DNA of 47,737 bases from a virus (lineage: Duplodnaviria > Heunggongvirae > Uroviricota > Caudoviricetes), in the IMG/VR virus record IMGVR_UViG_2541047873_000005; one strand, written 5' to 3'. Positions 34,893 to 47,737 of the stretch are shown piece after piece (the first letter of the stretch is position 1; each line of letters starts with the position of its first letter). Below the pieces are notes generated by a model. That model saw only the letters and a list, made by a program, of their open reading frames with translations. It ran no database searches and was not told the origin of the DNA. The position numbers were made by a program, and so were the translations under genes.

Positions 34893-34923
34893 AATAAAAA
34901 CAAAAACCCGCCGAAGCGGGTTA
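34893..34923 (-). terminator. Rho-independent terminator at 3' end of hok mRNA
   Basis: Hairpin AACCCGC-ttcg-GCGGGTT followed by long U-run on the minus strand. Confidence 0.55.
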
Positions 34924-34990
34924 AGTGCGGGTGCGTTGAGGATGCCTGCCACATCAGAGGTGGCGAGGGATTTCTCCCTCGCCGGGTCTC

Positions 34991-35146
34991 TTACTCCTCA
35001 GGTTCGTAAGCTGTGAAGACAGCGACCTCCGTCTGGCCGGTTCGGATTCGTACCTCGCAGAGGTCTTTCCTCGTTACCAGTGCCGTCACTATGACGGTTA
35101 AACAGATGACGATCAGGGCGATTAACATCGCCTTTTGCTGCTTCAT
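34991..35146 (-). CDS. hokD: Hok-family membrane toxin HokD (RelF)
   Basis: 51 aa MKQQKAMLIALIVICLTVIVTALVTRKDLCEVRIRTGQTEVAVFTAYEPEE matches HokD; track ORF 34991..35203 carries an in-frame upstream extension. Confidence 0.9.
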   Translation of the reverse strand: MKQQKAMLIALIVICLTVIVTALVTRKDLCEVRIRTGQTEVAVFTAYEPEE

Positions 35147-35935
35147 AGCCTGCTTCTCCTTGCCTTTCGGCTCGTAAGAGGCTAACCTACATGTGTCTAG
35201 CATGAAATTGGCCTCAGATTAATGTTAAGCGTCTTGCAGGACGCGTAATGTTAACTGGGGCTTTTCTCTATCTGCCTTTGGTGTTCATGCCCGAGGCAGA
35301 TAGCCTCAAGCACCCGCAGCCATTCTACTTAACTACCGTTACCTCGCCAATATGAAATCAGTCAGAAAGGCGATCCATAAGAACAATAGCAAGACAATAA
35401 ATCGCCATTACAGCCGTAATAGCCAGCGCACATTTGAGAACCAGCACCACAACCTCCTGTATTGGACGTAGACCAGTCCTGATGAATATGAGGCTGTCTC
35501 GTCAGTGATTCAATACAACTATTGGGTATAGTTTCTCTGATTTTTTCTGTGGAAATGGGGCACAACCACTAGTCACCACCAGCACTTCTTTTAATACGCA
35601 AAGTCCGACACAAGCTAACCTTCTAGTCCGCTTTGAGCGAAAAACAGCCATAATTTAGTGCCACGTATATAATGATAGAGCTATTCAAGCTAGCAATTCA
35701 CATGTAAAAATTCAGAGGGTAGAAGCACATAGTTATAAATGTTGGCTCCATCGACAAATTGCGGTCTCAAGTACATTTATTAATGTTGCCCCCGCATTAA
35801 CAAATCATCAAGGTGACGACATGGACGATATTAATATCAGCCTCGACGAACTTAACACTATTGATTTATCCCCCTTAATCCTGAACCGCCCCGGGAATCC
35901 TGGAGACTAAACTTCCTGAGAAAGAGGTAAACAGG

Positions 35936-36262
35936 ATGACTAAAAATACTCGTTTTTCCCCCGAAGTCCGTCAACGGGCAGTCCGTATGGTTCTGGAAAG
36001 TCAGAGCGAATATGACTCACAATGGGCGACAATTTGTTCCATTGCTCCAAAGATTGGCTGTACGCCGGAGACTCTGCGTGTCTGGGTTCGCCAGCATGAG
36101 CGGGATACCGGGGGCGGTGATGGAGGGCTCACCACCGCTGAACGTCAGCGTCTGAAAGAGCTGGAACGTGAAAATCGTGAACTGCGCCGCAGTAACGATA
36201 TCCTTCGCCAGGCTTCCGCTTATTTTGCGAAGGCGGAGTTCGACCGCCTCTGGAAAAAATGA
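35936..36262 (+). CDS. IS629 transposase OrfA (HTH)
   Basis: 108 aa [37 protein letters not shown]...; ends next to an A6 run usable for -1 frameshift into orfB. Confidence 0.9.
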
Positions 36263-37149
36263 TGCCACTGCTGGATAAGCTGCGTGAGCAGTACGGGGTC
36301 GGACCGCTATGCAGCGAACTGCATATTGCCCCGTCAACGTATTACCACTGTCAGCAACAGCGACATCATCCGGATAAACGCAGTGCCCGTGCGCAGCGCG
36401 ATGACTGGCTGAAGAAAGAGATACAGCGCGTATACGATGAAAATCACAAGGTATACGGTGTGCGTAAAGTCTGGCGTCAGTTGTTACGGGAAGGTATCAG
36501 AGTGGCCAGATGCACTGTGGCACGTCTCATGGCGGTTATGGGACTTGCCGGTGTTCTCCGGGGTAAAAAGGTCCGTACGACCATCAGCCGGAAAGCCGTT
36601 GCCGCAGGCGACCGCGTAAACCGTCAGTTCGTGGCAGAACGACCTGACCAGCTGTGGGTGGCTGATTTTACTTACGTCAGCACATGGCGGGGCTTCGTCT
36701 ATGTGGCGTTCATCATTGATGTGTTTGCCGGATACATCGTGGGGTGGCGGGTCTCATCGTCCATGGAAACGACATTCGTGCTGGATGCACTGGAGCAGGC
36801 GTTATGGGCCCGTCGACCGTCCGGCACGGTCCATCACAGTGATAAAGGTTCTCAGTATGTATCGCTGGCCTACACACAGCGGCTTAAGGAAGCCGGATTA
36901 CTGGCATCAACAGGAAGTACAGGCGACTCGTATGACAACGCGATGGCGGAGAGCATCAATGGTCTTTACAAAGCGGAGGTAATACACCGTAAGAGCTGGA
37001 AAAACCGTGCAGAAGTGGAACTGGCCACACTCACGTGGGTGGACTGGTATAACAATCGACGATTGCTGGAAAGGCTGGGCCATACTCCTCCGGCAGAAGC
37101 AGAAAAAGCTTATTATGCTTCCATCGGAAACGATGATCTGGCAGCCTGA
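36259..37149 (+). CDS. IS629 transposase OrfB (DDE integrase core)
   Basis: 296 aa, -1 frame overlap with orfA; DDE motifs (WVADFTY..., HSDKGSQY..., DNAMAES). Confidence 0.9.
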
Positions 37150-37385
37150 GTTCACAGATAAAACACTCTCCAGGAAACCCGGGGCGGTTCATCCAGAGTA
37201 AGCTGCCAGTTACCTGCTTTGATATCACAAAGTATCTTTCTAGCCTAGGTGATGGAAGAGCGGAGATAAGACTGCTAACCCATATTTGCGGTTTTCACTT
37301 TCGTCCCGAAAATCCACAGGTACCATTTGGTCCGTGCTTTCAAAGCAGCCAAGGTAGATCTGCAATTCCGGATGACATTAACGGG

Positions 37386-38921
37386 TTGTCGCTGGAGGTA
37401 CTTTCTCAATTTTGCCCGACGATAGAGCTACCCGAACTTCAAGCTCGTATTGCTGATACACTTTGGGTTCGTAAAATTGGTGGAATCCGTTTTCCTTTGC
37501 TGGCAGTCCGTGCTTATTATGCGTCCAGTATAGCTATTATGACATCGCAAGGGACGTGGGTTAGTGCTTTAGAACGCCTAGAGCGTGCGCTTAGGCTGTG
37601 TTGTTTTTTTCGAAAGAATACTGATTTCAGGGATGAATTTGATCAGCTTTCGGCACATCTACTAGCAGAGTATGAACGTACCAGAGAACAAGGCGATTCA
37701 CCTTATCCGCTGCGACTCCTGCAACTCGATATCGACTGTAAAGTGAGTGAGCCATCTTTTATTGCCCAGGAACTCCTGTTTCTGACAAAAAACTATCTGG
37801 CTCAAAAATTATTTTCATTTGCCGTCGATGCCTGTAAAACCGCAATCACGATTGCGAATAGGTGCTGTGACAGAGATACACAGTTTGAATTCTGGCGGCT
37901 TCTTGCCGATACACATCTGGAAGAGTCAAAATTCCAAGATGGCGGTATGATTTCGGCAGCCTGCATGCAGAATGCTATTGAAGCACTGGCTAATATTCCA
38001 GGAACCCGAATAGAACGTCTTGCGCTGTATGAAGAAATGCGTGATTACCAAATCGAATCCCGTCACCAGATGTCTATCCTTCAGTCTCCCCCTCAAGATA
38101 TTAGTGAGATTGTCCATCAAGCCAAGAGTCGGGTAGTCGGAAGAGATATGTTTGATATGGTTTTCAGACTTGCGATGCTGGTCTGTCGGCCAACCAGCAT
38201 TGAGAGACTTAAGGCTCAAGCAATAGAACAAAAGGCCAACAGCATAGCTTGGATGTTTGGATCAACACATATTGATCATGAGGGAATGACACTTGCTCGC
38301 ATACCCGCAGGATTGGGGATTGATGATGCAAATGGGGCAGTTATTTGGCCCATAATGATGACGAGAATGCGTATCGACCATGAGTTGGCAGTAGCTGGGC
38401 AAATTATTCCTGCTACAGATGAGATCACAATGAAATATCCAATCTCGGAGGCGTTTTTTCGCGATATGTTCATCAATCATCCCTTCATCCCGTTTGGGCA
38501 TGAAGAGTTTTTCATCAAGGGTATGGTTTGCGGTTTCAATGGAGATTTTATGACGGCATGCCACGTGTTGATTCCCCAGATCGAAAATAGTCTGAGATAT
38601 GTGGCTAAAATTAAAGGTGAGGAACCATCGCAGCTTCACGGGGACGGTTCGCAAGAGCGAAATGGACTCAAGGGATTACTAGATAATCCACTGATTATTG
38701 AAGCTTTCGGCGTAGACATAATTGGCAATCTTCAGGCCTTACTGGTAGATAAAATCTATGGTGATTTACGAAATCAACTAGCTCACGGATATGTGCCTGC
38801 CGGTTACTACAATCAACCTCCCTGCATTTTTGCATGGTGGCTTGTATTGCACATTCTAATGAACCCTACGGCGAGATACTGGCAAGCCACTTATGGCCAA
38901 GAGAGTGAGGCTCAGACTTAA
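37386..38921 (+). CDS. 3' fragment (511 codons) of the IS629-disrupted gene
   Basis: Track ORF from TTG at 37386; contains DLRNQLAHGY near the C-terminus (about 38768..38785). Confidence 0.5.
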   Translation: MSLEVLSQFCPTIELPELQARIADTLWVRKIGGIRFPLLAVRAYYASSIAIMTSQGTWVSALERLERALRLCCFFRKNTDFRDEFDQLSAHLLAEYERTREQGDSPYPLRLLQLDIDCKVSEPSFIAQELLFLTKNYLAQKLFSFAVDACKTAITIANRCCDRDTQFEFWRLLADTHLEESKFQDGGMISAACMQNAIEALANIPGTRIERLALYEEMRDYQIESRHQMSILQSPPQDISEIVHQAKSRVVGRDMFDMVFRLAMLVCRPTSIERLKAQAIEQKANSIAWMFGSTHIDHEGMTLARIPAGLGIDDANGAVIWPIMMTRMRIDHELAVAGQIIPATDEITMKYPISEAFFRDMFINHPFIPFGHEEFFIKGMVCGFNGDFMTACHVLIPQIENSLRYVAKIKGEEPSQLHGDGSQERNGLKGLLDNPLIIEAFGVDIIGNLQALLVDKIYGDLRNQLAHGYVPAGYYNQPPCIFAWWLVLHILMNPTARYWQATYGQESEAQT

Positions 38922-39139
38922 AGTGAATAAGTTTACGAAGTTGGCACTTCCGGATGCATGTCCATATGAGTTGAGGCGATTTGGTTAATAAGGTTGAGTG
39001 CTGCTGAAATTATTCGATGTCCGCTTTTGGCACAAAGCGGACAACCACGCCAGATCTACCCTGTGCCATGAAAAATGAGAATGTCAATTCACTCCTGAAC
39101 TAATGCTTTTTAATCTAGTAACGTCTAAAATACCTAACA

Positions 39140-39541
39140 TTATCCCTGATAAAATGCCAGTATGCGCTGCATAACTTCACTCATCCGGCACTCGCGACAG
39201 ATTATGTTTAGGCGACTGTCGTAGCGACGTATTTCTCCATCAGGTAACGACCAGATAAGGTCCGGATCAACCACAGCTGTTTTCTTCACCTTTGCCCTCG
39301 AGAGTTTTTTGCGGGCGTTTTGCCAGTCCTTACGCGCCTGTTCAGACGGGAATAACCCGTAGCCGGAGTTGTATACATCGCCACTGGCTACCAGCTCTCT
39401 GGCAAGAACGCTCATCAGATATCTAGTCGCACCTGTTTTAGCTTCCAGTTGCCGTAACGTCTCACGACCGCTCTGGCGCACGAGTTCCACCACCTGCCCT
39501 TTAATTTTTTCCCGCTCTTCTTGTGTAAAAACTTTTGCCAC
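39140..39541 (-). CDS. Hypothetical protein (133 aa) downstream of replication initiator
   Basis: ORF in the position normally held by a P/DnaC-like loader but far too small; no recognised motif. Confidence 0.45.
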   Translation of the reverse strand: MAKVFTQEEREKIKGQVVELVRQSGRETLRQLEAKTGATRYLMSVLARELVASGDVYNSGYGLFPSEQARKDWQNARKKLSRAKVKKTAVVDPDLIWSLPDGEIRRYDSRLNIICRECRMSEVMQRILAFYQG

Positions 39542-39581
39542 AAGTCCCCCTTAAAATTACCTCATGACCTGAAATCAAAAC

Positions 39582-40601
39582 TTATCCTCTGAAACCAGGC
39601 GGAATTTCTGTATCCGGTTCAGAAATATGATTAACACAACGCTGTACAGGTGAACGCCCCAGGCGGATGACCAGTTCGTCCCATTTTTCGCGGAGCTTTG
39701 ACGGGCTCATGATGTTTTTTACCCAGAATGGATCCCGCTGTACCCGACCAAACATTTCACAAATTTGTCTGTGGCTTCTGCCATCCAGCATCCGCATTGT
39801 GCGCACATCATTGGCCCAGACAGTCCAGTTAGGCTCTTTTGGTCGCATGATCTCGCCATCATCACTGGCGGCCTGTTCGTAGAGACCCACGATCCGCCCC
39901 CATATCCACTGCGCACACGCCAGATCCTCCTGGCTACCCCACTGGCGTTTTTTCGCACTAAACACAACTGCGCCAGGGTGCCGGATTAAAAAATCCTGTT
40001 CAGCCGTCTGCGGGTCCGGTTGCGAAGCTTCCGGACGAAAAGTGTTTTTATTCTCTGTAGTAATCTCTGTTGTATTCTCTGTAGGATCATCGGGCCATTT
40101 TGACCCGATGACATTGGGTCGTTTTGAACCAATGGAGCGTTTCATTTTGACCTCTTCCATCGTGTCATTTTGACCTGATGGAGCGGCGCATTTTGAACCG
40201 ATGGATTCGCTCAATTTGCCATCATCTAAAAGCTCGCTTCCATAGTTAATCGTGTAGAAATTGGTCATATCGCGCTTTGATTTATTGAGCTTTTCACAAC
40301 GCAAAAGCCCCAGCGTTTTCAGACTTGCAAACGCGCGCTTTAACGTTGACTCTGACCAGAATGGGAACTGTTCCAGCCATTGTTCCGTTGTGTTGTAAAT
40401 CCAGCGAACACCATCACATTCCATGCCGGAATTGGTATCTCTCAACCAGTAATGCAACTGCTGCAACACAATGGCTTCATTTAAGCCAATCTTCATCGCA
40501 AGCTGTGTGTTTATAACCAGTGGGCGTTCAGCAAAAAGAAGGCTCATAATTCCATCCAGCTTTTTGTTGGTATTGCTGTCGATACGCAAGTTTGAAAGCA
40601 A
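39582..40601 (-). CDS. Replication initiator protein (lambda O-like) containing ori iterons
   Basis: 339 aa with N-terminal HTH-like domain; repeated IGSK protein motif encoded by DNA iterons; next to cro/cI-like genes. Confidence 0.7.
   Translation of the reverse strand: MLSNLRIDSNTNKKLDGIMSLLFAERPLVINTQLAMKIGLNEAIVLQQLHYWLRDTNSGMECDGVRWIYNTTEQWLEQFPFWSESTLKRAFASLKTLGLLRCEKLNKSKRDMTNFYTINYGSELLDDGKLSESIGSKCAAPSGQNDTMEEVKMKRSIGSKRPNVIGSKWPDDPTENTTEITTENKNTFRPEASQPDPQTAEQDFLIRHPGAVVFSAKKRQWGSQEDLACAQWIWGRIVGLYEQAASDDGEIMRPKEPNWTVWANDVRTMRMLDGRSHRQICEMFGRVQRDPFWVKNIMSPSKLREKWDELVIRLGRSPVQRCVNHISEPDTEIPPGFRG
40045..40210. repeat. Candidate origin of replication: five ~16-bp iterons (cATTTTGAcCyGATGG) at ~23-bp spacing plus adjacent TTCTCTGT direct repeats
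   Basis: Copies at about 40096, 40120, 40143, 40166 and 40189; three TTCTCTGTAG-like repeats at 40049..40084; all inside the O-like gene as in lambda. Confidence 0.6.
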
Positions 40602-41049
40602 TTGCTTTTTCTATAAGTTCGTCAGTTTCACGATCCACTACGGCAGGATCAGCAAAAAGCAGTCCGGACTCCACCACATCGCCATATTCTTTGTTTAACC
40701 CGGCGATCATGTACGTGATGCTTTTTCCGTCACTAATTTCACGATACAACCTGAAATCATTAATCCGGATAGCCTCCATAATTGCAGGCACTAGCGCCGT
40801 GAACTTTTCACGCTTATCCCTGGTGTCGATAGCCTTCCAGCGTTCGAATATCTTCACTCGATTAACGCCAAGCGCTCGCTGATCAACCGCGCCACCTTCA
40901 TCTGTGACACGCTGAACATCGATGTTCGGGCGCTCTTTCAAAGCCCAGAATGCTTCAGTGATTAATATCGTCGCCTGCTCCTGTGTCATTCCTGGTCGAC
41001 ATATCCAGGCATCCAGAGCCTCACGAGCCTGTTCAGGAGTGATTTTCAT
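40528..41049 (-). CDS. Hypothetical protein (173 aa) in the cII/YdaT position
   Basis: ORF between cro-like gene and replication initiator; weak resemblance to Rac YdaT around KREKFTALVPAI. Confidence 0.45.
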   Translation of the reverse strand: MKITPEQAREALDAWICRPGMTQEQATILITEAFWALKERPNIDVQRVTDEGGAVDQRALGVNRVKIFERWKAIDTRDKREKFTALVPAIMEAIRINDFRLYREISDGKSITYMIAGLNKEYGDVVESGLLFADPAVVDRETDELIEKAIAFKLAYRQQYQQKAGWNYEPSFC

Positions 41050-41260
41050 TGTTCAACCGCCCCGCCCGCTTCGTCTTACGATATTCGTCATAAACCTTGG
41101 GATCATACAGAAGCTCGCCGCCAGATGCCTCCTGTAGACGCATCGCGCGACCTTCAGGAACCAGCTCTTGCCATTGAGAAACAGCAGATGGGTCAACGCC
41201 AGCAGCTTTCGCTACTTTGGCTTTCGTACCGTAAAAATTAATTACGTCTGATTTAAACAT
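41033..41260 (-). CDS. dicC: Cro-like repressor DicC
   Basis: 75 aa; C-terminal half LVPEGRAMRLQEASGGELLYDPKVYDEYRKTKRAGRLNNENHS matches recalled K-12 DicC; divergent from dicA. Confidence 0.75.
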   Translation of the reverse strand: MFKSDVINFYGTKAKVAKAAGVDPSAVSQWQELVPEGRAMRLQEASGGELLYDPKVYDEYRKTKRAGRLNNENHS

Positions 41261-41337
41261 CGCACCTCCAGTATTGAGTTTTCTCAATGCTAATCACTCA
41301 AGGAATCTCAAGTCAAGGGTTATTAAGATATCTAAAT
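41261..41337. promoter_or_regulatory. dicC-dicA divergent promoter/operator region
   Basis: 77-bp gap between divergent repressor genes; palindrome TTGAG-tttt-CTCAA at 41274..41287 and tandem CTCAAG repeats. Confidence 0.4.
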
Positions 41338-41745
41338 ATGAACGAGAAAACTTTAGGTCAACGCATTAGAGAAAGACGTAAGCAGGTAGGTTTAAGTCAA
41401 AACGGTTTAAGCAAAGCTGCTGGCGTATCTGGCTCATCAATTTCATTATGGGAAAGTGACCATACAGCCCCGCGCGGGCAAAATTTGCATCGCCTCGCCG
41501 AGGTATTGCAATGTTCACCAACCTGGATACTGTTTGGCGACGAGGACAAAACACCAGCTCCCCCTGTTTCACTCGATAGTGCCTTAGACTTATCGGAAGA
41601 TGAGTTAGAGATGCTGCGTTTGTATCGCGCACTTCCTAAATCAGAGCAACAAGCACAACTCAGCGAACTCCGCGCCCGCGTTGAGAATTTTAATCGCCTG
41701 TTCACCGAGCTATTAGAGGCTCGCAAACGCAACAAGCATCAATAA
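41338..41745 (+). CDS. dicA: cI-like repressor DicA (HTH XRE family)
   Basis: 135 aa from MNEKTLGQRIRERRKQ...; shares VLQCSPTWILFGDEDK and C-terminal pattern with K-12 DicA. Confidence 0.8.
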   Translation: MNEKTLGQRIRERRKQVGLSQNGLSKAAGVSGSSISLWESDHTAPRGQNLHRLAEVLQCSPTWILFGDEDKTPAPPVSLDSALDLSEDELEMLRLYRALPKSEQQAQLSELRARVENFNRLFTELLEARKRNKHQ

Positions 41746-43626: not shown

Positions 43627-46098
43627 ATGAGTAAAGTCTTTATTTGCGCCGCTATTCCTGACGAACTGGCAACAAGGGAAGAAGGCGCTGTGGCTGTAGC
43701 CACAGCCATTGAAGCTGGCGACGAACGCCGTGCTCGAGCAAAATTTCACTGGCAATTCCTGGAACATTATCCGGCTGCTCAGGACTGCGCTTATAAATTT
43801 ATTGTCTGCGAGGATAAACCTGGCATACCCCGCCCTGCCCTCGATTCATGGGATGCTGAATATATGCAGGAAAACCGCTGGGATGAGGAGTCTGCTTCTT
43901 TTGTCCCGGTTGAGACTGAATCCGATCCGATGAACGTCACTTTTGACAAGCTGGCCCCTGAAGTACAGAACGCTGTCATGGTTAAGTTCGACACATGTGA
44001 AAACATCACCGTTGATATGGTTATTAGCGCACAGGAATTGTTGCAGGAAGACATGGCAACATTCGACGGACATATCGTTGAAGCGTTGATGAAAATGCCA
44101 GAAGTTAACGCCATGTATCCGGAGCTTAAGTTGCACGCCATTGGGTGGGTTAAGCATAAATGTATTCCTGGTGCTAAATGGCCCGAAATTCAGGCAGAGA
44201 TGCGCATCTGGAAAAAACGTCGCGAAGGTGAACGCAAGGAAACCGGAAAATACACGTCTGTTGTTGATCTCGCCCGCGCCAGAGCCAATCAACAGTACAC
44301 TGAAAATTCAACAGGAAAAATCAGCCCGGTCATTGCTGCCATTCATCGCGAATACAAGCAGACATGGAAAACACTGGATGACGAACTGGCCTACGCTCTC
44401 TGGCCTGGTGATGTGGATGCCGGAAACATTGACGGCAGCATCCATCGCTGGGCAAAAAATGAAGTTATCGATAACGACCGCGAAGACTGGAAGCGTATCT
44501 CGGCATCAATGCGCAAACAGCCTGATGCCCTTCGCTACGACCGCCAAACTATTTTTGGCCTTGTCCGTGAACGTCCGATCGACATTCACAAAGATCCCGT
44601 AGCACTGAACAAATATATCTGCGAATACCTGACGACAAAGGGCGTGTTTGAGAATGAAGAAACAGACCTGGGCACTGTTGATGTTCTCCAGTCATCAGAA
44701 ACACAAACTGATGCAGTGGAAACTGAGGTATCTGATATCCCAAAAAATGAAACCGCGCCGGAAGCTGAACCATCTGTAGAGCGTGAGGGGCCGTTCTATT
44801 TCCTCTTCGCAGATAAGGACGGAGAAAAATACGGTCGCGCAAACAAACTTTCTGGTCTGGATAAGGCACTGGCTGCTGGCGCCACTGAAATCACAAAAGA
44901 AGAATATTTTGCCCGAAAAAATGGCACATACACGGGCTTACCGCAAAATGTAGATACCGCTGAAGATTCAGAACAACCAGAGCCGATAAAAGTTACCGCT
45001 GACGAAGTAAACAAAATTATGCAGGCAGCCAATATCATCCAGCCTGACGCCGATAAGTTGCTTGCTGCATCACGTGGTGAATTTGTTGAAGGGATTAGTG
45101 ACCCGAATGATCCGAAATGGGTTAAGGGGATCCAGACCCGCGATTCTGTGAACCAGAACCAGCATGAATCGGAACGGAACTACCAAAAAGCGGAACAAAA
45201 CAGCCCAAATGCGTTACAAAACGAGCCAGAAACGAAACAGCCTGAATCAGTGGCGCAACAGGAAGTGGAAAAAGTCTGCACCGCCTGCGGTCAGACCGGC
45301 GGCGGCAACTGCCCTGATTGTGGCGCGGTAATGGGCGACGCAACATACCAGGAAACATTCGATGAAGAGTATCAGGTTGAAGTTCAGGAAGATGATCCGG
45401 AGAAAATGGAAGGCGCTGAACATCCACACAAGGAGAACACTGGCGGCAATCAGCATCACGATAGCGATAATGAAACTGGCGAGACGGCAGATCACTCAAT
45501 TAAGGTGAACGGTCATCACGAAATCACATCCACCAGCAGGACGTGTGACCATCTAATGATCGACCTTGAAACCATGGGAAAAAATCCTGATGCCCCGATC
45601 ATCTCAATAGGTGCAATATTTTTCGATCCGCAAACCGGAGATATGGGACCGGAATTTATTAAGACTATCGATCTGGAAACTGCTGGCGGAGTCATTGATC
45701 GGGACACCATTAAATGGTGGTTTAAGCAATCACGCGAAGCGCAATCTGCCATTATGACCGATGAAATCCCGTTAGATGATGCACTGTTACAATTGCGGGA
45801 ATTTATCGACGAAAACTCCGGTGAATTTTTTGTTCAGGTCTGGGGAAATGGAGCCAACTTCGACAACACGATTTTGCGCCGTTCATACGAACGGCAGGGG
45901 ATCCCCTGCCCGTGGCGTTACTACAACGATCGCGATGTACGCACAATCGTTGAGCTGGGGAAAGCCATAGACTTCGATGCCAGAACGGCTATTCAATTCG
46001 AAGGTGAGCGCCATAATGCACTTGATGACGCCCGTTACCAGGCAAAATACGTTTCAGTTATCTGGCAAAAACTGATCCCGAGTCAGGCTGATTCTTAA
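43627..46098 (+). CDS. ydfE: YdfE-like N-terminal domain fused via zinc-ribbon and acidic linker to a DEDDh 3'-5' exonuclease domain
   Basis: 823 aa; N-terminal ~300 aa match recalled K-12 YdfE; CTACGQTGGGNCPDCG zinc ribbon; C-terminal Exo I (MIDLETMG), Exo II-like (WGNGANFDNTIL) and Exo III (HNALDDARY) motifs. Confidence 0.7.
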   Translation: MSKVFICAAIPDELATREEGAVAVATAIEAGDERRARAKFHWQFLEHYPAAQDCAYKFIVCEDKPGIPRPALDSWDAEYMQENRWDEESASFVPVETESDPMNVTFDKLAPEVQNAVMVKFDTCENITVDMVISAQELLQEDMATFDGHIVEALMKMPEVNAMYPELKLHAIGWVKHKCIPGAKWPEIQAEMRIWKKRREGERKETGKYTSVVDLARARANQQYTENSTGKISPVIAAIHREYKQTWKTLDDELAYALWPGDVDAGNIDGSIHRWAKNEVIDNDREDWKRISASMRKQPDALRYDRQTIFGLVRERPIDIHKDPVALNKYICEYLTTKGVFENEETDLGTVDVLQSSETQTDAVETEVSDIPKNETAPEAEPSVEREGPFYFLFADKDGEKYGRANKLSGLDKALAAGATEITKEEYFARKNGTYTGLPQNVDTAEDSEQPEPIKVTADEVNKIMQAANIIQPDADKLLAASRGEFVEGISDPNDPKWVKGIQTRDSVNQNQHESERNYQKAEQNSPNALQNEPETKQPESVAQQEVEKVCTACGQTGGGNCPDCGAVMGDATYQETFDEEYQVEVQEDDPEKMEGAEHPHKENTGGNQHHDSDNETGETADHSIKVNGHHEITSTSRTCDHLMIDLETMGKNPDAPIISIGAIFFDPQTGDMGPEFIKTIDLETAGGVIDRDTIKWWFKQSREAQSAIMTDEIPLDDALLQLREFIDENSGEFFVQVWGNGANFDNTILRRSYERQGIPCPWRYYNDRDVRTIVELGKAIDFDARTAIQFEGERHNALDDARYQAKYVSVIWQKLIPSQADS

Positions 46099-46441: not shown

Positions 46442-47737
46442 ATGAGAGAAGTTGAAATGAAATATCCGACAGGCGTGGAAAACCATGGAGGGAAATTACG
46501 TATCTGGTTTGTTTATAAAGGCGTAAGAGTCAGGGAAAACCTGGGGGTTCCTGACACAGCAAAAAACAGGCGCGTTGCAGGTGAGCTACGCGCCTCTGTT
46601 TGTTACGCAATAAAAACTGGTGTTTTCGACTATGCAAAACAGTTTCCCTCCTCACGCAATCTGGAAAAATTTGGTGAGGCCCGACAAGATTTAACCATAA
46701 AAGAACTGGCTGAAAAATTTCTGGCACTGAAAGAAACTGAAGTCGCAAAAACATCACTCAACACATACCGTGCCGTCATCAAAAATATCCTGAGCATAAT
46801 CGGTGAAAAAAATCTTGCCTCATCGATTAATAAAGAAAAATTACTGGAGGTTCGTAAAGAGCTACTGACTGGATACCAGATCCCCAAAAGTAACTATATT
46901 GTTACACAACCAGGGAGATCGGCTGTAACTGTAAATAATTACATGACAAATCTTAACGCCGTGTTCCAGTTTGGTGTTGATAACGGTTACCTGGTAGATA
47001 ACCCGTTTAAGGGGATCTCGCCATTAAAGGAATCAAGAACCATTCCGGATCCTCTTTCGCGGGAGGAATTCATCCGTCTTATCGATGCGTGCAGAAATCA
47101 GCAAGCCAAAAATTTATGGTGTGTTTCTGTTTATACTGGCGTTCGCCCTGGTGAGCTGTGTGCACTTGGATGGGAGGACATAGATCTGAAAAATGGAACA
47201 ATGATGATCAGGAGAAATTTAGCAAAAGACCGTTTCACGGTACCAAAAACACAGGCGGGAACCAATCGGGTCATTCATCTTATTAAGCCAGCAATCGACG
47301 CTCTCCGGAGTCAGATGACATTAACGAGACTGAGCAAAGAGCATATCATTGATGTTCACCTCAGAGAGTATGGCAGAACAGAAAAACAAAAATGCACCTT
47401 TGTTTTTCAACCTGAAGTGTCAGCGAGAGTAAAAAATTATGGTGACCATTTTACCGTTGACTCAATAAGGCAGATGTGGGACGCAGCGATAAAACGTGCC
47501 GGACTCCGCCATCGAAAATCATATCAGTCGAGACATACTTATGCCTGCTGGTCGCTGACAGCTGGTGCTAACCCGGCATTTATAGCAAACCAGATGGGCC
47601 ATGCAGATGCGCAAATGGTATTTCAGGTATACGGAAAATGGATGTCTGAAAACAATAATGCACAGGTAGCTTTGTTAAATACACAGTTAAGCGAGTTTGC
47701 CCCAACCATGCCCCATAACGAAGCAATGAAAAATTAA
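46442..47737 (+). CDS. int: Tyrosine integrase (phage integrase family)
   Basis: 431 aa; catalytic-domain motifs near C-terminus (SRHTYACWSL, GHADAQMVFQVYGKWM with catalytic Tyr); at prophage right end. Confidence 0.85.
   Translation: MREVEMKYPTGVENHGGKLRIWFVYKGVRVRENLGVPDTAKNRRVAGELRASVCYAIKTGVFDYAKQFPSSRNLEKFGEARQDLTIKELAEKFLALKETEVAKTSLNTYRAVIKNILSIIGEKNLASSINKEKLLEVRKELLTGYQIPKSNYIVTQPGRSAVTVNNYMTNLNAVFQFGVDNGYLVDNPFKGISPLKESRTIPDPLSREEFIRLIDACRNQQAKNLWCVSVYTGVRPGELCALGWEDIDLKNGTMMIRRNLAKDRFTVPKTQAGTNRVIHLIKPAIDALRSQMTLTRLSKEHIIDVHLREYGRTEKQKCTFVFQPEVSARVKNYGDHFTVDSIRQMWDAAIKRAGLRHRKSYQSRHTYACWSLTAGANPAFIANQMGHADAQMVFQVYGKWMSENNNAQVALLNTQLSEFAPTMPHNEAMKN

Follow-up and report, generated by a model that had tools for sequence, protein, structure and literature searches.

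An IS3-split DUF7380-DUF4209 (HEPN) gene in a Qin-like E. coli prophage: a dead copy of a catalogued candidate defense gene

A prophage gene for a 595-residue protein is split by an insertion sequence

In a 47,737-nt stretch of viral DNA (IMG/VR record IMGVR_UViG_2541047873_000005; hereafter the window, meaning the whole stretch that was analyzed), a plus-strand gene encoding a protein with N-terminal DUF7380 and C-terminal DUF4209 (HEPN) domains is interrupted within codon 21 by an insertion sequence (IS). A first-pass annotation, made from the letters alone, had read the two pieces as one open reading frame (ORF) of ~595 codons that starts at the ATG at 35821 behind an AGGTGA ribosome-binding site (RBS) and resumes in phase past a TCC duplication. 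Both readings held, since the AGGTGA was located at 35811-35816, and the joining of 35821-35881 to 37195-38921 with the IS removed in silico gave 1788 nt in frame, encoding 595 amino acids (aa) followed by a stop codon. The split gene and the inserted element consist of the following features.

35811-35816, plus strand: AGGTGA, Shine-Dalgarno-like, 4 nt before the ATG
35821-35881, plus strand: 5' gene fragment, codons 1-20 and the first base of codon 21
35879-35881: left copy of the TCC target-site duplication
35882-37191, plus strand: IS3-family insertion sequence (IS629-type), 1310 bp, in the same orientation as the split gene
35936-36262, plus strand: orfA of the IS element, a transposase ORF overlapping orfB
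36259-37149, plus strand: orfB of the IS element, a transposase ORF overlapping orfA
37192-37194: right copy of the TCC target-site duplication
37195-38921, plus strand: 3' gene fragment, from the rest of codon 21 to codon 595 and the stop codon

The element has the features of IS629 and the IS3 family, namely a length of ~1.3 kb, inverted ends, a 3-bp duplication, and orfA and orfB with a frameshift. The terminal inverted repeats of the 1310-bp element begin TGAACCGCCCCGGG, and identical copies in E. coli are labeled 'IS3 family transposase' in RefSeq, with a frameshift pseudoknot. Its length, ends and 3-bp duplication fit IS629, and we name it so provisionally. The proposal that the gene was split by a recent insertion with an intact target-site duplication is borne out by the TCC at both ends and by the restored sequence, which equals that of intact alleles. 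The exact junction between IS and gene was found in none of 5426 complete E. coli genomes, nor in IMG/VR contigs.

When the restored region (34900-39700) was compared by blastn with the corresponding locus of E. coli 118UI, the identity was 100% over 3488 bp; thus, the insertion is the sole difference between the two. In RefSeq, the 118UI locus holds a single 595-aa coding sequence, WP_000340970.1 ('DUF4209 domain-containing protein'), flanked by the hokD and DUF977 genes of a Qin-like prophage, and the prophage backbone of the window is likewise 100% identical to those of several sequenced strains, 118UI among them. A search for the uninterrupted allele in E. coli prophages, which the first-pass annotation had recommended, was positive: a probe across the restored junction matched unbroken in 149 of the 5426 complete genomes. 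The 3' fragment was matched at 99% identity or more in 150 of these genomes, and the gene is full length in 147 of these 150 copies. Its distribution in E. coli is accessory (~3% of complete genomes), and it always lies on a prophage. A spurious ORF arising by chance was rejected because full-length homologs are conserved across bacterial phyla.

Read on from its ATG, the 5' stump of the split gene extends over 9 further codons within the IS before a stop codon at 35909-35911. Because the IS parts the promoter region, the RBS and codons 1-20 from the other 575 codons, the window copy is almost certainly non-functional, a dead allele. It is plausible that the gene was formerly functional and possibly toxic, as the first-pass annotation supposed, the one point in favor being that the restored sequence matches intact alleles perfectly. 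Other copies of the same gene carry lesions of their own. One has an IS3-family element inserted near aa 427, another has lost sequence after ~aa 29 in an IS1-associated deletion, two have a foreign N-terminus joined at aa 112 (E. coli DEC9A) or aa 135 (Klebsiella), and one is truncated at aa 518 (independently damaged copies at L002:5940-9040 and L095:3501-4599, and proteins P0122, P0127 and P0133). Since 147 of the 150 complete-genome copies are full length, these lesions do not demonstrate selection against the gene, and neutral IS traffic in an IS-rich strain accounts for the window copy equally well.

The C-terminal domain is a HEPN domain

The restored protein is divided into three parts, of which the first is itself broken by the insertion.

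35830-35881 (aa 4-20) and, for the most part, 37195-37631, plus strand: N-terminal DUF7380 (PF24098), aa 4-166, E 2.1e-34
37491-38243, plus strand: helical-repeat, TPR-like middle region, about aa 120-370
38502-38915, plus strand: C-terminal HEPN domain, about aa 457-594, with Pfam DUF4209 over aa 484-573
38577-38597, plus strand: first-helix motif Q482-I-E484-N-S486-L-R488, in which Q, E, S and R are invariant
38769-38786, plus strand: R546-N-Q-L-A-H551, the R-x4-H HEPN signature, with R, H and the next residue, G552, invariant

Three independent grounds identify the C-terminal domain as a HEPN domain carrying an invariant R-x4-H. First, it matches Pfam DUF4209 (PF13910) with 34 bits against a cut-off of 22.3 (E 3e-8), and DUF4209 was matched in all 25 C-terminal fragments that were tested against Pfam, nothing but DUF4209 being found in these fragments at E ≤ 1. 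The N-terminal DUF7380 scores 119.3 bits against a gathering cut-off of 27. Second, in an alignment of 42 homologs with 24-100% identity, Q482, E484, S486 and R488 (PQIENSLR) and R546, H551 and G552 (LRNxxAHG) are invariant. Third, the full-length AlphaFold model is confident (pLDDT 89.8), and in this model the C-terminal domain is predicted to form the all-alpha, up-down helical bundle of the HEPN fold, whose closest structural matches are HepT toxins (PDB 7ae2, 5yep and 8xdj) with 6-10% sequence identity. Further structural matches listed are Csm6, the HEPN domain of AbiA, and sacsin, with RnlA, LsoA, Las1 and AbiV lower. The HEPN call made originally from the motif DLRNQLAHGY, in which R546 is encoded at 38769-38771 and H551 at 38784-38786, is thus backed by the Pfam family, the invariant residues and the structural matches alike.

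The search of the PDB by sequence with the family profile returned weak TPR matches only (best E 0.019), with no solved close relative, and the BFVD viral structure library gave no match at E ≤ 0.001.

The family is already catalogued as a defense candidate

The first-pass annotation had presented the gene as a candidate undescribed abortive-infection or defense gene. However, the protein has known Pfam domains (DUF7380 and DUF4209), matches PADLOC models and has its allele cluster listed by DefensePredictor, and 'undescribed' has to be withdrawn. The protein matches two PADLOC PDC-S39 models nearly end to end (PDLC05012, E 8.4e-103; PDLC05011, E 2.6e-102), the match spanning aa 43-581 of 595 and profile positions 54-602 of 615. 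The 145 PDC candidates derive from genes located inside BREX, DISARM and type I restriction-modification (R-M) systems (Payne et al. 2024, bioRxiv 10.1101/2024.01.29.577857). DUF4209 corresponds to the C6orf70 family of the HEPN superfamily, which was predicted to be catalytically active and was noted as 'fused to TPR' and as one that 'occurs in R-M related operons', with a predicted role in RNA degradation for its eukaryotic member C6orf70/ERMARD (Anantharaman et al. 2013, PMC3710099). In the DefensePredictor study (Science 2026, PMC13092281; Tables S5 and S10), the allele cluster is given as a 'predicted novel defense gene', with log-odds of 4.3 for WP_021514655.1 (595 aa) and 5.7 for WP_001429192.1, the latter belonging to the same 90% cluster as the window protein.

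An NCBIfam search of the protein matched no model, and the PHROGs matches were limited to families of unknown function, including 5183 and 31613. Literature searches on DUF7380, and on ERMARD together with HEPN, returned no papers. The family, its HEPN nature, the TPR fusion, the R-M association and the defense candidacy are already published or in public databases. Being a dead allele of a candidate that is already catalogued, the window copy adds nothing to those databases.

The gene occupies a defense-cargo slot between hokD and DUF977

Backbone homology to related prophages stops at ~35645 and restarts at ~39019, and the sequence between these points differs from prophage to prophage.

34991-35146 (also given as 34991-35203), minus strand: left backbone neighbor, a hokD-type gene for a type I toxin
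35646-39018: variable cargo cassette, 2060 bp without the IS, delimited by blastn against six related prophage loci with other cargos
35668-35673, plus strand: perfect TATAAT hexamer within the cassette, ~150 bp upstream of the ATG
39140-39541, minus strand: DUF977 family gene, the right backbone neighbor

Between hokD and the slot lie ~440 bp of conserved non-coding backbone (35204-35645), and beyond DUF977, on the same minus strand, are the replication, YdaT and Cro genes. The plus-strand gene is consequently antisense within minus-strand genes, with hokD on one side and the replication genes on the other, just as first described. The cassette consists of the DUF4209 gene and its 175-bp upstream region; this is the sole cargo gene between hokD and DUF977, and the cassette has no other ORF of at least 70 aa on the strand of the gene. 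The TATAAT hexamer is a possible promoter of the gene's own, judging from its sequence.

The right boundary of the cassette coincides exactly with a potential hairpin at 39020-39043, where the DUF4209 and DUF977 genes converge; its 9-bp stem is perfect and its loop has 6 nt (GTCCGCTTT-TGGCAC-AAAGCGGAC). The hairpin has no T-run and may serve as a terminator in both directions or be a landmark of recombination.

The slot is filled differently in other strains, by another HEPN-annotated protein (310 aa), a RelA/SpoT protein matching PDC-S33, a truncated AbiH, a SIR2/ThsA-like gene accompanied by genes for an NTP pyrophosphatase and an adenosine deaminase, or a pair of HAD and NUDIX genes. In K-12 Qin, relBE lies ahead of hokD and may fill the equivalent slot. 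In UTI89, the slot holds WP_014639476.1 and a partner; WP_014639476.1 is one of the two proteins of DS-33, and its partner is one accession digit off the second. DS-33 is experimentally defensive according to Table S6 of the DefensePredictor study (PMC13092281). Because defense-type cargos and a DS-33 protein occupy the slot elsewhere, the hokD/DUF977 junction of Qin-like E. coli prophages is a defense-cargo hotspot with sharp boundaries. The moron or defense position assigned to the gene at first sight is in this way substantiated, and residence in the hotspot is the strongest local evidence for the function of the gene. The hotspot is also the most useful new point of this analysis: the junction is a compact, easily recognized slot that holds DS-33 and several candidates and could be mined systematically.

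Homologs beyond the E. coli prophage

Homologs of ~600 aa that share both Pfam domains are present in Vibrio, Aeromonas, Pseudomonas, cyanobacteria, Chloroflexota, Bacillota and a methanogen, and a strict peptide pattern found a homolog in at least 322 of 185,579 species genomes. We surveyed 43 distant loci with three ORFs on each side of the gene. A type I R-M specificity subunit was near the gene in 5 of the 43 and a methylase in 3-4, and other neighbors included HsdR, Mrr, integrases, PD-T4-6-like kinases, DUF4238 and PIN. Some homologs lie inside R-M operons of the chromosome, away from any phage; the E. coli copy, as prophage cargo, has no R-M neighbor.

Among phages, a nucleotide search of 50,697 records gave no match, and a protein search gave two distant partial matches only, with 22.5% and 23.9% identity. 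In cyanobacterial homologs, the DUF4209 gene is overlapped at its stop codon by a gene of ~140 aa, and all four copies that were scanned against Pfam (L067, L074, L075 and L087) encode a PIN domain. This suggests a lineage-specific, two-nuclease version, no such partner being present in the E. coli cassette. P2-like phages carry a distant 643-aa DUF4209 paralog with ~23% identity over the TPR-like and HEPN part.

L067:11767-12198, L074:11746-12177, L075:11677-12102, L084:11683-12099 and L087:11647-12066: cyanobacterial overlapping genes of ~140 aa
L096:3041-4972 (Escherichia phage vB_EcoM-569R9) and AM157366.1 (P2-EC46): P2-like paralog, flanked by gpA (replication) and gpQ (portal)

We take the gpA-gpQ position to be the tin/old hotspot of P2. 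P2-like phages and P4-like satellites have hotspots of anti-phage systems (Rousset et al. 2022, PMC9122126).

A copy of the E. coli gene with 97% identity is located on a Klebsiella pneumoniae IncFIB/IncFII conjugative plasmid (L097:6001-7788), where it adjoins a group II intron, an IS110-family element and an antirestriction gene. This plasmid copy indicates that the cassette moves between prophages and plasmids.

Proposed function and alternative explanations

The most likely function of the intact gene, in our analysis, is that of a sensor-coupled HEPN RNase acting in abortive infection and inactivated in the window copy, a reading that we hold to be probable. In a lysogen, the gene would be transcribed from its own promoter, opposing the silent early operon, and the N-terminal and TPR-like part would keep the HEPN domain inactive and sense a phage-derived protein or an infection-induced change. 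Upon sensing, HEPN domains would pair to form a composite R-x4-H active site in the manner of other HEPN RNases, whose metal-independent activity usually resides in dimers. The paired domains could then cleave cellular and/or phage RNA (mRNA, tRNA or rRNA), and this cleavage would stop translation and abort the infection, protecting clonal lysogens and the prophage. A more specific version is tentative, and we give it slightly less than even weight: DUF7380-TPR-HEPN would be a working single-protein abortive-infection system whose N-terminal module recognizes a phage protein, it would be the prokaryotic immune counterpart of ERMARD/C6orf70, and the IS disruptions would reflect an autoimmune cost.

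Several points weigh against the abortive-infection reading. Its RNase activity, dimerization, trigger and phenotype are what we infer by analogy with HEPN defense proteins such as HEC-08 and DS-11, and there are HEPN families, MtlR for one, whose members are regulators without catalysis. A scan for consensus promoters and terminators gave no more sites than in shuffled sequence, with no full promoter match on the plus strand upstream of the gene. Many distant homologs are in small islets among ordinary genes with no recognizable defense neighbor (V. cholerae, P. trivialis). The PDC systems entered PADLOC as untested defense candidates (Payne et al. 2024, bioRxiv 10.1101/2024.01.29.577857), and the DefensePredictor authors also call them unvalidated; in the cloned-unit table of the latter study (PMC13092281), DUF4209 proteins are absent. 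Finally, the searchable literature contains no toxicity, abortive-infection or phage-resistance experiment on the protein.

We considered four other explanations. A selfish addiction or stabilization toxin, that is, a HEPN RNase that retains a prophage or plasmid by post-segregational killing rather than acting against phages, would suit the adjacency to hokD, itself a type I toxin gene, the 97%-identical copy on Klebsiella IncF conjugative plasmids, the HepT toxins of HEPN/MNT pairs as closest structural matches, and the repeated independent disruptions, which a costly toxin might be expected to suffer. However, the cassette (35646-39018) contains neither an antitoxin-sized ORF nor an MNT gene, the large N-terminal and TPR-like part resembles a sensor more than an antitoxin, and the occurrence in R-M operons and prophage defense hotspots indicates conflict with phages. 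We therefore consider this explanation unlikely, bearing in mind that addiction and defense roles are not mutually exclusive. In its narrower form, a type II or VII toxin-antitoxin pair of HEPN and MNT, it was rejected because there is no partner gene: no MNT gene is adjacent, and the flanks are prophage backbone.

That the protein is a non-defense HEPN protein for RNA processing or regulation, either non-catalytic or housekeeping in the manner of C6orf70/ERMARD or MtlR, appears quite unlikely to us. The Pfam family does include a conserved eukaryotic protein with a predicted role in RNA degradation, and several bacterial homologs sit among ordinary metabolic genes. Nevertheless, the gene is strictly accessory, confined in E. 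coli to prophages of ~3% of complete genomes and found elsewhere on plasmids and in islets; the R-x4-H and the polar residues of the first helix are invariant, unlike in non-catalytic HEPN families; and R-M genes are enriched in the neighborhoods.

A role in the phage's own lytic cycle or in counter-defense, for example by degrading host RNA or defense transcripts after induction, is very improbable. The gene is phage-borne and lies in the early region, PHROG 5183 and 31613 contain phage-encoded relatives, and a P2-like phage has a paralog. Against this, the gene is transcribed opposite to the early operon with an upstream region of its own, the usual layout for cargo expressed in the lysogen; its slot is interchanged with AbiH, SIR2 and DS-33; homologs exist inside chromosomal R-M operons without a phage; and the 50,697 phage records had no nucleotide match and two protein matches that were distant and partial.

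Lastly, continued activity of the split gene, through IS read-through and an internal start (TTG at 37386, or Met134) that would yield an N-terminally truncated HEPN protein, is most improbable: the IS and the gene share their orientation, an in-frame ORF of 511 codons is left at 37386-38921 and N-terminally replaced versions are annotated in databases (P0127 and P0133), but an internal start has no evident RBS or promoter, half or more of the conserved DUF7380 is lost, an autoinhibitory N-terminus, if that is its role, would leave a toxic product with little chance of persisting, and expression of a truncated product is hypothetical.

The abortive-infection reading can be placed among known systems as follows. 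First, PDC-S39 is the same family by sequence, with distant homologs beside or inside type I R-M gene sets; the E. coli member differs in being prophage cargo that is not embedded in R-M genes, and the window copy in being broken by an IS. Second, the protein resembles C6orf70/ERMARD in its above-threshold DUF4209 match, the retained R-x4-H, the TPR-like fusion and the R-M operon association of bacterial members, whereas the eukaryotic members are described as membrane-anchored proteins of the endoplasmic reticulum and the bacterial protein has an N-terminal DUF7380. Third, HepT has ~130-140 aa and is neutralized by an adjacent MNT nucleotidyltransferase, in contrast to the HEPN domain here, which ends a 595-aa protein with no partner gene. 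Fourth, AbiD/F, AbiJ, AbiV, ApeA, PD-T7-4, HEC-08, DS-11 and DS-38 likewise combine a HEPN nuclease with a non-catalytic sensing or regulatory part and are borne by mobile elements, but their partner domains are zinc ribbons, CBS or AbiJ-NTD rather than DUF7380 and a TPR-like region. In HEC-08 and DS-11, mutation of the R-x4-6-H histidine abolishes defense.

By sequence, the protein stands apart from these families. Neither the named HEPN Abi families (Abi_2/AbiD/F, Abi_C, AbiJ and AbiV) in Pfam or PADLOC nor the PADLOC/Pfam models for ApeA, PD-T7-4, HEC-08, DS-11 and DS-38 gave a match at E ≤ 1, and the HHblits link to the AbiJ C-terminal domain reported by DefensePredictor is weak (62-73% probability). 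Of the profile and structure searches suggested at the outset, those for DUF4209 and the HEPN fold were thus positive, and Abi_C was unmatched.

Should the restored gene turn out to provide defense, one more of the 145 PADLOC candidates would be validated and a design of TPR sensor and HEPN domain would join the single-protein abortive-infection systems. It would also provide a first functional handle on a HEPN family with a conserved and poorly understood eukaryotic branch (ERMARD).

Prophage surroundings

The window (1-47737) is almost wholly one lambdoid, Qin-like prophage. Its genes run in the order of tail-fiber, tail and head genes, lysis, Q and a nin-like region, then the immunity region (41033-41745). 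Toward the end of the prophage, an exonuclease gene (43627-46098) is followed by an ORF (46442-47737) that runs off the end of the window; in strain 118UI, the integrase gene occupies the position of this ORF.

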